From Vicinamibacterales bacterium (GTDB lineage: Bacteria > Acidobacteriota > Vicinamibacteria > Vicinamibacterales > SCN-69-37), in the NCBI GenBank assembly GCA_035606665.1, contig DATNEY010000027.1, positions 133,787 through 197,786 on the forward strand: 64,000 bases of DNA. Reading direction: 5' to 3'. The notes under the pieces are model-generated. The model did not search any database and had not been told where the DNA came from. It worked only from the letters and a program-made list of their open reading frames with translations. Numbering within the stretch: position 1 is the first letter of the stretch; every line of letters starts with the position of its first letter. This document shows positions 62,707-64,000 of this stretch, piece after piece. A program made the position numbers and the translations under genes.

Positions 62707-64000
62707 ATGCCGTTGCCCCAGGCCAAAGAGAAGGCAGTAGAACTTCTGAAGCGGAAGCGACAGTCCACGCCGGGCGCTCTCGAGCCCATGGGGCCGGCTC
62801 CTCAAGCGCGGCGATTCTCTGTCTTCATCGGATCCGATCTCGAGAAGGCCATCGCACTGGCAGAGCGCTGGATGGGCATGACGGCGGCCCAGGGCACTGA
62901 CGCCTTGGACGCGGTACTCGCGGACGCGGACGCCGCGATGAACACTACGGACTCTGATCTCGTGAAACATGCCCTGATGATGTTCATCACACACGATCCA
63001 GTCGGCCGCCAATTGCCTATTCCGCCGTTGCTCGAGCGCGAACCCGACCTGGTGCGGCCGTCGTCTCGAAGCGCGACAGCAACGCCGGCCGGCCTCGAGG
63101 CCATGGGAGGTACCGGCAAGGAGGCGGCAGTCGATTATTTCCGCGAAGACACTTGGATCAACGAGCATCACGGCAAATGGCACGTGGTCTACCCAGCCGG
63201 TGGCATTCAGAAGAAACTTCGAAATCGACAAGGTGAGTTGTTCTGGTACATGCACCAGCAAATGCTGGCGCGTTACGACGCTGAGCGGCGTTCCCTCGGA
63301 CTGGCCCCCGTTGTGTCGCTCGACACCTTCAATCAACCAATCGGCGAGGGCTACGATCCTGAGATTCCAGGCGGATGGGCCGCGCGCCCTGACGACTCGC
63401 AATGGCCATTGCTCCCGTTGGGACCTGGTCAGAATTATGGCCCCACGCAACACGCCTCGCGCCGGGATCGATTGCGCGCCGCCGCCACGTCTGGAGAGCT
63501 GCAGCATCCCGACGGGAAGAAACATCCAATCGCCGGAGTCGAACAACTCTCCGATACCCTGGAAGCGAACATCGGATCGGTTGAAGGATCGCAATGGAAT
63601 CCGACGTCTTTTTACGGTTCGTACCACAATATCGGTCATGTCCTCATTGCGAATGCCGGGGATCCAGGTGACGGAGTCATGACGAGTACGACGACGGCTG
63701 TTCGTGATCCGGTGTTTTACCGCTGGCATCGCGGCATCGACGACATCATCGATGCTTGGTGGATCAAGAGACCGTCTCACGATCTCGCCGCCTCGGATCC
63801 GAAGGTCCTGGCTAAAGAGATCGGGGCGATCGCTCTCACGGCGGTTCCAGCAGGCGATCCGCAAGCCTGGGCAGGGTCGGAGTTCGGAGGGGCCAACTGG
63901 GAGAAGGCTCCGGCCGGAGTCAGCCTTGACAGGTTGACCACGACGATGGGAACACACGACATCCCCAATCCTGGTGGCGCGCCCATCAAGAAGCCGCACC
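62707..64000 (+). CDS. Type-3 copper protein of the arthropod hemocyanin/phenoloxidase type (partial; runs off the right edge)
   Basis: Not in the ORF track because there is no stop in the window. My translation from ATG 62707 gives CuA region [21 protein letters not shown]...[21 protein letters not shown] and CuB region [10 protein letters not shown]...[16 protein letters not shown]. Track ORF 62641..63999 (-) is its antisense shadow. Confidence 0.85.
   Translation, partial: [431 protein letters not shown]

Follow-up and report, generated by a model that had tools for sequence, protein, structure and literature searches.

We show that a 64,000-nucleotide stretch of DNA from a soil Vicinamibacterales bacterium of the phylum Acidobacteriota (hereafter the window, part of a chromosomal contig derived from a metagenome-assembled genome, MAG) ends in a gene for a homolog of the arthropod hemocyanins and prophenoloxidases (PPOs), with three domains: an N-terminal domain (N), a binuclear-copper domain (M) and an Ig-like C-terminal domain (C). 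The window holds codons 1-431 of 612 of this hemocyanin-like gene (62707..64000, + strand, defined by its open frame, Pfam matches and contig extension; its end is equivalent to position 64545, beyond the window), and just past the window edge it is followed by genes for a caspase-like protease and for a Y4kD_C protein. From sequence and analogy, we propose that the protein may be a phenoloxidase effector that stays latent until proteolysis excises its N-domain and that probably belongs to a conflict or defence module, a reading to which we give an even chance. The more specific picture of a bacterial prophenoloxidase system, in which a latent copper oxidase would be freed by the operon-encoded caspase-like protease to act as an immune or cell-death effector, is drawn by analogy and put forward as a tentative possibility, more doubtful than probable.

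A sequence-only reading of the window had assigned the protein to the arthropod-type (PF00372) type-3 copper proteins rather than to the usual PF00264 tyrosinases, and domain searches, fold and copper ligands bear this out. The Pfam Hemocyanin_M model (PF00372) matches with 123.8 bits against a gathering cut-off of 20.8 (E = 9.7e-36) and Hemocyanin_C (PF03723) with 109.2 bits (E = 2.8e-31; residues 400-584 of the public protein P0001, mostly outside the window), and the Tyrosinase model (PF00264) reaches 32.5 bits (1.4e-7) over profile positions 119-211 of 214, which is the CuB half only. A search of NCBIfam returned no family match, the PvdP-type tyrosinase model scoring 12.8 bits against a cut-off of 625. 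Among PDB sequences, phmmer ranks scorpion hemocyanin best (7.5e-38) and also retrieves Manduca PPO, Aedes PPO6 and the fungal protein AsqI (1.3e-14). An AlphaFold2 (AF2) model built on 57 homologs (predicted local distance difference test score, pLDDT, 88.4; predicted template modelling score, pTM, 0.92) has Limulus hemocyanin II (1OXY) as its first Foldseek match in the PDB (E = 4e-39, TM 0.79/0.84); the 46 matches that reach E <= 1e-3 comprise only hemocyanins, PPOs and hexamerins of arthropods together with AsqI, with no PF00264 tyrosinase among them.

Both copper sites have the arthropod form. CuA (63133..63291, +; aa 143-195) contributes His155 (63169-71), His159 (63181-83) and His183 (63253-55); its motif HHxxWH...YMHQQM aligns with the arthropod HHWHWH...YMHQQ, and the spacing H155-x3-H159-x23-H183 is of the beta type, not the H(n)H(8)H of PF00264 tyrosinase CuA. 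CuB (63604..63756, +; aa 300-350), with His307 (63625-27), His311 (63637-39) and His341 (63727-29), aligns with the arthropod HNxGH...FYRWHRxID. The copper-site strings quoted in the sequence-only reading are found verbatim in the translation at aa 143-198 and aa 306-348. That reading had staked its case on the presence of all six ligands and on a placement outside the ordinary bacterial tyrosinases: histidines 155, 159, 183, 307, 311 and 341 are invariant in 112 of 112 full-length homologs, and the protein does not fall among those tyrosinases. The beta-rich, Ig-like Hemocyanin_C domain begins within the window (63799..64000, +; Pfam match, AF2 strands from residue 368 on); its motif CxCGWPxHLLxPRG, invariant in homolog alignments, lies beyond it, and C522, C524, G525 and W526 are invariant in both a 25- and a 57-sequence alignment. 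Insect PPOs have a conserved catalytic-base glutamate; we make no claim that the invariant Glu286 is its counterpart, as pairwise alignments differ by 3-4 residues.

The N-terminal alpha-helical domain (62794..63090, +; aa 30-128, delimited by phmmer and hhalign, with AF2 helices at 42-116) finds no match to the Pfam Hemocyanin_N model at E <= 1. Phmmer alignments to scorpion hemocyanin and Manduca PPO1 span this domain (domain I), and in hhalign arthropod domain I matches the profile of the bacterial N-domain at a probability of 98.2% (E = 3e-14) with FSxF aligned, which indicates that the bacterial N-domain is homologous to domain I of arthropod hemocyanins and PPOs. The FSVF motif (62815..62826, +; aa 37-40, located in the phmmer and hhalign alignments) pairs with FSCF of chelicerate hemocyanin and with FSLF, and its Phe40 aligns with chain residue F84 of MsPPO1. 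This residue is F85 of MsPPO1, the insect "place holder", which keeps the active-site pocket blocked as long as the protein is not activated (PMC4092376). No sequence of the 25- or the 57-sequence alignment deviates from Phe40, and its conservation among 112 sequences is at least 98%. In Limulus hemocyanin the same position is that of Phe49. The "placeholder" of Aguilera et al. 2013 is another residue, a gate residue inside the copper domain, and the term is not applied in that sense to Phe40.

From 62707, a stop-free forward frame of 431 codons continues past the window end at 64000. The sequence-only reading had described the gene as leaving the window and had called for an extension of the contig. 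We carried this out with Logan contig L130, which is 100% identical to window positions 52707-64000 (11,294 nt, 0 mismatches), provides 4.3 kb beyond them and continues coding to the complete 612 codons. The gene is indeed absent, as had been remarked, from the mechanical list of open reading frames (ORFs), in which ORFs exceeding the source sequence were left out. The sole long ORF listed there, a 452-aa antisense frame (62641-63999, -), covers nearly the whole hemocyanin-like gene; as the strong family matches are in the + frame, we regard it as a high-GC shadow ORF. Among public proteins, P0001 (585 aa) is 100% identical to the window ORF, and P0121, a 612-aa member of the same cluster, equals the window ORF plus the remainder of P0001; it is NCBI HXT69966.1, labelled "tyrosinase family protein [Vicinamibacterales bacterium]", on a 712-kb MAG contig. 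Public start calls differ, JGI beginning P0001 at Met28 (62788; 585 aa) and NCBI at Met1 (62707; 612 aa). We favour Met1 because of a Shine-Dalgarno sequence (AGGAG, 62695..62699, +, 7 nt 5' of the ATG), a conserved N-terminal helix and a candidate protease site described below, site 1 at aa 24-29, which is lost with the shorter start; relatives share the register of the window ORF, and the JGI start is probably too short. On inspection the N-terminus shows no hydrophobic signal-like segment, in agreement with the sequence-only reading, and residues 3-15 form a confident helix in the AF2 model; with no apparent signal peptide, the protein is therefore predicted to be cytoplasmic.

The TAG stop codon of the hemocyanin-like gene abuts the ATG of a 396-aa Peptidase_C14 (caspase-like) gene, which in turn overlaps a 404-aa Y4kD_C (PF27295) gene by 4 nt; both downstream genes are seen on L130 only. 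This arrangement indicates that the hemocyanin-like gene is the first of a translationally coupled three-gene operon, in the order hemocyanin-like, C14, Y4kD_C. The catalytic motifs GHG and D[AS]CR are at least 90% conserved in the C14 family, and the C14 protein is weakly similar to the NCBIfam "caspase, EACC1-associated type" and the PADLOC "caspase" models. A PDB sequence search with the C14 and Y4kD_C proteins returned nothing, and an NCBIfam search with Y4kD_C gave no match. The Y4kD_C model (pLDDT 72.8) begins with a transthyretin-like sandwich, which a disordered linker separates from a second beta domain and a TPR-like helical domain; a fold search with the model found generic matches only (transthyretin-like sandwich, TPR) and recognised no enzymatic fold. 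The linkage is kept across relatives: wherever enough downstream DNA is available, the members of the window's clade all have C14, and nearly all of them also a detectable Y4kD_C gene; the three-gene order recurs at about 15 non-redundant loci in Acidobacteriota and in a Kofleriaceae MAG. The C14-linked hemocyanin-like clade to which the window protein belongs is monophyletic in a neighbour-joining (NJ) tree of 293 columns, built with no bootstraps and with three eukaryotic (arthropod) sequences.

Two further observations concern these loci. In the Kofleriaceae MAG, the closest genome relative (68%; L001:14762-21839), the cassette is followed by Tc-toxin-like genes, one for an SpvB/TcdB_mid/RHS protein (2,201 aa) and one for a TcA-like protein (3,023 aa); this was seen at one locus only. 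At many C14-linked loci, the window's own not included, a gene of about 115 aa lies between the hemocyanin-like and C14 genes. It encodes a stand-alone paralog of the hemocyanin N-domain (hhalign 99.8%, E = 7e-28) and occurs at L063:11766-12110 (+), L005:2341-2694, L006:3212-3562, L051:4538-4891, L052:11834-12184, L065:11840-12223 and others. The paralog has Tyr at the place-holder position (FS[DEA]Y), is free of the candidate cleavage motifs described next, and could be a trans-acting inhibitor, an immunity factor or a caddie-like partner.

The motif [LIV]E[APSG][LM]G, written LE-x-[LM]-G below, occurs twice in the window protein and its close relatives, about 105 aa apart, and the pair brackets the N-domain. 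Candidate protease site 1, ALEPMG (62776..62793, +; aa 24-29), with a proposed cut at Met28|Gly29, lies in the loop before the N-domain, and candidate site 2, GLEAMG (63091..63108, +; aa 129-134), with a proposed cut at Met133|Gly134, lies in the linker between the N-domain and the copper domain. Each falls in one of the low-confidence stretches of the AF2 model, 24-31 and 121-135, the sole other being 559-561; pLDDT is below 50 at residues 24-31 and 122-124 and averages 52 over 121-130 and 68 over 131-140, values that are a mere proxy for accessibility. Site 2 (as [AGTSP][LM]G[AG]) is found in 17 of 17 members of the C14-linked clade and in 5 of 81 other sequences, and site 1 (as an [LM]G motif) in 14 of 17 and 1 of 81, counts that are not phylogenetically independent, the C14-linked proteins being a single clade. 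The same unusual variant, AGVVTLGA, stands at both sites in L063, and the two sites within one protein are more alike than sites of different proteins (permutation p = 0.02). In other clades the linker motif follows the type of neighbouring gene: ISIGG accompanies an HExxH protein plus a metallo-beta-lactamase (MBL)-fold protein, with R-x-ISIGG at the position of the window protein's GLEAMGG; QLAGAIG accompanies S8 peptidases; and ESLEAVGGE marks an actinobacterial clade with trypsin-like or S8 neighbours.

Distant C14 homologs again precede Y4kD_C, and the overlapping gene upstream of them is unrelated to hemocyanin. It encodes an alpha/beta-hydrolase-like protein of 430 aa (L133:2797-4089), astacins (L134:3412-4161; L135:775-1662) and a small membrane protein of 108 aa with a hydrophobic helix (L136:4678-5004). 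Three of these four slot proteins carry the motif, as LEPLG at aa 33, LETLG at aa 55, immediately N-terminal to the catalytic domain of the astacin, and LETMG at aa 79, ahead of the C-terminal tail. With the regular expression fixed beforehand and a background of 2.5e-4 per residue, the probability of at least three in four is 9e-4; for the narrow motif LE[APT][LM]G it is 7e-7. This recurrence suggests that C14-Y4kD_C is a module with an interchangeable upstream gene, and that the hemocyanin-like protein may belong to a wider family of caspase-activated effectors sharing a recognition motif.

In the mechanism we propose, Phe40 of the N-domain would plug the substrate pocket of the copper site, as in insect prophenoloxidase (proPO). 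The C14 protease would become active in response to a trigger, possibly via the Y4kD_C protein, which might serve as sensor or adaptor, and would then cut the LE-x-[LM]|G sites at Met28|Gly29 and Met133|Gly134, thereby releasing the N-domain plug. Provided that the protein is loaded with copper, the exposed Cu2O2 site could use O2 to convert tyrosine, catechols and other phenols into reactive quinones in the cytoplasm. The output would be cell damage or death, or melanin-like cross-linking, in a conflict or defence module of the protease-effector type whose effector would be the oxidase; a damaging role is proposed because of the analogy with the slot-mates and with published protease-effector modules. 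Taken by itself, protease-dependent activation of the hemocyanin-like protein has, on the present sequence comparisons, roughly equal chances of being right and wrong. The roles listed in the sequence-only reading were phenoloxidase, O2 binding and secondary-metabolite oxidation; we retain the first, in a latent, protease-activated form favoured by context, over O2 transport and secondary metabolism because a caspase-like protease gene lies just beyond the window.

The proposal has precedents. Cleavage of insect PPOs takes place at R51/F52, ahead of the place holder, and in Holotrichia, or with chymotrypsin, a second cut after the place holder exposes the pocket and yields directly active phenoloxidase (PMC4092376). 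A caspase-like protease cuts the Runella gasdermin after a P1 Leu247 and requires Gly at P1' (bioRxiv 10.1101/2021.06.07.447441). In prokaryotic protease-effector modules, the MBL and alpha/beta-hydrolase effectors linked to proteases are zymogens that become active through cleavage at two sites, the MBL losing its occluding linkers, and the alpha/beta-hydrolase effector is cut by a caspase-like protease (PMC12642450).

An unlikely account holds that the protein is a free-standing cytoplasmic phenol or catechol oxidase serving melanin pigment formation, phenolic detoxification or small-molecule tailoring, with C14 and Y4kD_C unrelated or loosely co-regulated. The intact type-3 copper site and the "tyrosinase" labels that NCBI and JGI attach to homologs would fit it, as would the structural kinship with AsqI (TM 0.74/0.79), a fungal protein described as acting in quinolone biosynthesis (PMC6053404), and the roughly half of well-flanked loci that have no protease gene, some of which instead have a MerC-like protein, a possible metal transporter. 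However, no biosynthetic genes adjoin the hemocyanin-like gene in the window or on L130, and the whole clade keeps both the gene order and the stop/start coupling to C14-Y4kD_C. An invariant place-holder Phe predicts latency, and a free-standing oxidase leaves the LE-x-[LM]-G motif in unrelated slot-mates unexplained.

It is also quite unlikely that the protein is a true O2-binding protein for storage, buffering or sensing with no oxidase role, perhaps the sensor or regulator of a module whose effector is C14. Six histidines plus a blocking Phe are just what arthropod O2 carriers keep, Limulus hemocyanin is the closest structural match, slightly ahead of the PPOs, and bacterial caspase-like proteases are reported to be capable of acting as the killing effector themselves (10.1101/2024.10.24.620036). 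Yet the slot-mates (astacin, hydrolase-like protein, small membrane protein) are effector-like and not sensor-like, the motifs bracket an inhibitory domain in a way that makes sense for activation, and Y4kD_C, with its TPR-like repeats, would be the more natural sensor or adaptor. Very unlikely, in turn, is a C14 substrate whose released product is no phenoloxidase and acts as a toxic or signalling fragment or through other metal chemistry. For this variant speak AsqI, a homolog that is a non-redox enzyme and was crystallised with Zn (5YY2), and the stand-alone N-domain paralogs at related loci, which suggest a function of the N-domain's own; the invariance of the copper ligands and surrounding arthropod-type motifs in 112 sequences argues instead for canonical Cu2O2 chemistry.

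Beyond the C14-linked clade, a latent phenoloxidase activated by proteolysis gains from the neighbourhoods of other clades, where different protease genes recur: a 570-aa HExxH protein plus an MBL-fold protein (12-17 loci), S8 subtilases (about 15) and a Trypsin_2-Endonuclease_NS protein (about 12), besides a MerC-like membrane protein (17). Among 53 loci with at least 9 kb of flank on each side, a protease-class gene (C14, S8, trypsin-like or HExxH) lies within 2.5 kb of the hemocyanin-like gene in 28, and protease-class matches drop steeply with distance. On the complete plasmid pPR13E04 of Rhizobium indicum (NZ_CP054035.1; L131:3273-8773), a conjugative plasmid from a cultured strain, genes for an S8 peptidase, an MBL-fold hydrolase and a hemocyanin-like protein ("tyrosinase family protein", 35% identical to the window protein) follow one another on the same strand, with a Shedu (SduA) gene about 300 nt away and a PP2C phosphatase gene nearby. 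The protease-effector modules of PMC12642450 include S8-MBL.

Several points weigh against this reading, in addition to the indirect nature of pLDDT and the common ancestry behind the motif counts given above. About half of the well-flanked loci have no protease neighbour, and dependence on a protease therefore cannot hold family-wide. Within the C14-linked clade, site 1 is absent in 3-4 members (L012, L013, L051, L052); among the slot-mates, the astacin of L135 has KTLG only, and L132 has C14-Y4kD_C with no obvious coupled upstream effector gene. PADLOC gave no match for the hemocyanin-like protein, Y4kD_C or the small downstream proteins, and has no model for the first two. The defence role is argued from analogy and from a loose neighbourhood, with a bSEFIR gene 10 kb off and Shedu beside a distant homolog, and the conserved place holder would fit a non-enzymatic O2-binding protein equally well.

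The neighbouring genes of two other groups deserve description in their own right. In an actinobacterial clade, the 570-aa HExxH protein, which has no Pfam match, and the MBL-fold protein are encoded convergently to the hemocyanin-like gene across a gap of 13-25 nt, immediately 3' of it on the opposite strand (L100, L101, L104, L123, L124, L129, L022, L038, L095). At 17 loci of Chitinophagaceae and some Acidobacteriota (L094:11758-12468, L102, L089, L096, L006:732-1151, L007:7007-7426 and others), the hemocyanin-like gene is adjoined by one for a small CxxC membrane protein with a weak MerC match (5.9e-5, under the Pfam cut-off). This MerC-like protein might be an importer of metal, perhaps copper, for a cytoplasmic copper protein.

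The bacterial family covers at least eight phyla. In a pattern-limited scan that took one genome for each species, homologs turned up in at least 103 of 185,579 species representatives, and this and our other genome and protein scans, being word- or pattern-limited, give lower bounds. Hosts include Acidobacteriota, Actinomycetota, Chloroflexota, Gemmatimonadota, Alphaproteobacteria, Cyanobacteria (Cyanosarcina, Petrachloros, Pleurocapsa), Bacilli (Brevibacillus dissolubilis), Bacteroidota (Chitinophaga arvensicola DSM 3695) and Myxococcota (the Kofleriaceae MAG, whose homolog is 68% identical). Among the hosts that can be cultured are Rhizobium indicum JKLM 13E, Chitinophaga arvensicola DSM 3695, Brevibacillus dissolubilis CHY01 and Petrachloros mirabilis ULC683. 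Homologs are also carried on two conjugative plasmids of Rhizobium indicum, and none was found in the phage genomes searched. A profile search of 1.84 billion representatives, not restricted to bacteria, gave 2,093 clusters at 50% identity with E <= 1e-3 and 535 with E <= 1e-30. The description of bacterial members as rare in the sequence-only reading thus holds for the fraction of species and fails for the breadth of phyla. The window protein is 33-36% identical to the three arthropod sequences and 31-79% to bacterial homologs; with identity to arthropod proteins at just 33-36%, recent transfer from arthropods is excluded. In the NJ tree the three arthropod sequences form a single branch amid bacterial clades, a nesting that, given the scope of the tree, is suggestive only as to the direction of ancient transfer.

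These results also bear on an artefactual origin, by arthropod contamination of the metagenome bin or very recent transfer from an arthropod, which we regard as effectively refuted. Nothing beyond the family name speaks for it. Against contamination stand the Shine-Dalgarno sequence, the lack of introns, the placement of the gene among bacterial genes and in an operon with them, and homologs in cultured isolates (Chitinophaga arvensicola DSM 3695, Brevibacillus dissolubilis) and on the complete Rhizobium indicum plasmid; against recent transfer, the arthropod proteins are no closer to the window protein than its most distant bacterial homologs (31%).

The remainder of the window is otherwise that of a bacterial chromosome, coding for histidine ammonia-lyase and urocanase (hut genes), adenylosuccinate synthetase (purA), RNase III and two tRNAs; the GC content is 64%. 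Divergent from the hemocyanin-like gene lies a neighbour (60326..62377, -; ORF map, Pfam, PADLOC) that encodes a 683-aa protein with TPR repeats that resembles a restriction endonuclease (REase): its N-terminus has a weak Mrr-type restriction endonuclease match (Pfam 0.0055) and matches the N-terminal part of the PADLOC "Aga_REase-TIR" model (1e-7). This adjacency is not kept in the Kofleriaceae relative. The 329 nt between the two genes (62378..62706, no strand assigned; ORF map) presumably hold the operon promoter; a sigma-70 consensus scan of the equivalent region of L130 gave nothing above shuffled expectation and did not locate a promoter, and the promoter and terminator scan as a whole was uninformative. 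Ten kilobases upstream lies a gene of a known defence type, bSEFIR (50053..52539, +; PADLOC bSEFIR 1.2e-46), encoding an 828-aa TIR/SEFIR + NACHT/NB-ARC + TPR (STAND) protein. The run of genes between it and the TPR gene (53007-60043, -) encodes a MauE-like protein, an AraC-type helix-turn-helix regulator, an 825-aa CarboxypepD_reg-repeat protein and several products with no Pfam match.

The published picture of this superfamily places it in eukaryotes. Aguilera et al. 2013 credited bacteria and archaea with the alpha-subclass only and had the beta-subclass arise on the unikont stem (PMC3658974), Martin-Duran et al. 2013 described hemocyanin-M as "likely a unikont synapomorphy" and regarded the N-domain as a panarthropod signature (PMC3730353), and a 2025 classification of polyphenol oxidases excluded PF00372 (PMC11803259). 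A complete N-M-C protein with a place-holder Phe in at least eight bacterial phyla contradicts the eukaryote-only picture of the two 2013 surveys and reopens the origin of arthropod hemocyanin and prophenoloxidase. Searches of open-access papers and bioRxiv for bacterial hemocyanin or proPO, for Y4kD, for CATASP, a component named in PMC12642450, and for hemocyanin with abortive infection found no relevant description. The bacterial N-M-C hemocyanin/PPO family, its operon linkage to C14 and Y4kD_C and the predicted LE-x-[LM]|G recognition motif thus appear to be undescribed; the superfamily itself is known already, as is analogous logic in insect proPO and in prokaryotic protease-effector modules. 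If the proposed mechanism is correct, it would add an oxidative, quinone-generating type to the protease-activated death and defence effectors of bacteria, provide a prokaryotic parallel to the insect melanization zymogen, and predict LE-x-[LM]|G as the recognition motif of an uncharacterised family of bacterial caspase-like proteases. It would also trace the logic of the arthropod melanization zymogen, and possibly the eukaryotic hemocyanin/PPO superfamily too, back to conflict systems of bacteria, a kind of origin that has precedents in gasdermins, cGAS-STING and TIR.

Among known type-3 copper proteins, the bacterial tyrosinases with a caddie (MelC1; PF00264, alpha-subclass) share with the window protein a binuclear copper centre and a similar CuB half, and in them, too, an aromatic residue supplied by a different polypeptide segment shields the active site. 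The Tyr at the place-holder position of the stand-alone N-domain paralog recalls the caddie Tyr. In contrast to these tyrosinases, the window protein has a different CuA histidine spacing, additional N and C domains and no secretion signal, and the caddie or chaperone gene that the sequence-only reading had suggested looking for is found neither upstream within the window nor downstream on L130. Fungal AsqI, a hemocyanin-like cyclopenase (5YY2), is a non-arthropod member with the same fold; it is a non-oxidative Zn enzyme from a biosynthetic cluster, whereas the window gene keeps all copper ligands and lacks biosynthetic neighbours.

The resemblance to Manduca sexta PPO (3HHS) and Limulus hemocyanin II (1OXY) extends over the whole chain. 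The three-domain fold (TM 0.77-0.79), CuA HHxxWH...H, CuB HxxxH...H, the FSxF place holder and CxCGWPxH of domain III are all shared, and the candidate cleavage sites lie one on each side of the place holder, as do R51/F52 and R162/A163 in insect PPO. The window protein differs in being bacterial, predicted cytoplasmic and 28-36% identical, with an N-domain beyond the reach of Pfam Hemocyanin_N. Its presumed activator would be an operon-encoded caspase-like cysteine protease, not a cascade of clip-domain serine proteases, and its candidate P1-P1' pair is [LM]-Gly, not Arg-Phe; bacterial homologs have no equivalent of the conserved R|F site before the place holder at the insect position.

Close in organisation are the prokaryotic protease-effector modules (MBL, alpha/beta-hydrolase, Pepco, EACC1; bioRxiv 2025.11.14.688446/PMC12642450). 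A type-3 copper oxidase lies outside the ten module families surveyed there, and that paper never mentions hemocyanin, tyrosinase or copper; moreover, the operon described here has no fused STAND, CRISPR or other recognised sensor, and its third gene encodes the uncharacterised Y4kD_C (PF27295). In both cases, a candidate latent effector stands beside a dedicated protease, and the two cleavage sites that remove an occluding element from the MBL and alpha/beta-hydrolase effectors find a parallel in the two candidate sites of the hemocyanin-like protein. The caspase-family protease of the Runella gasdermin system accepts a hydrophobic P1 and a Gly P1', as the candidate sites would demand. Finally, an interchangeable effector slot is common to these modules and to C14-Y4kD_C, and the hemocyanin-like clades are themselves variously linked to C14, S8, trypsin-like and HExxH proteases.

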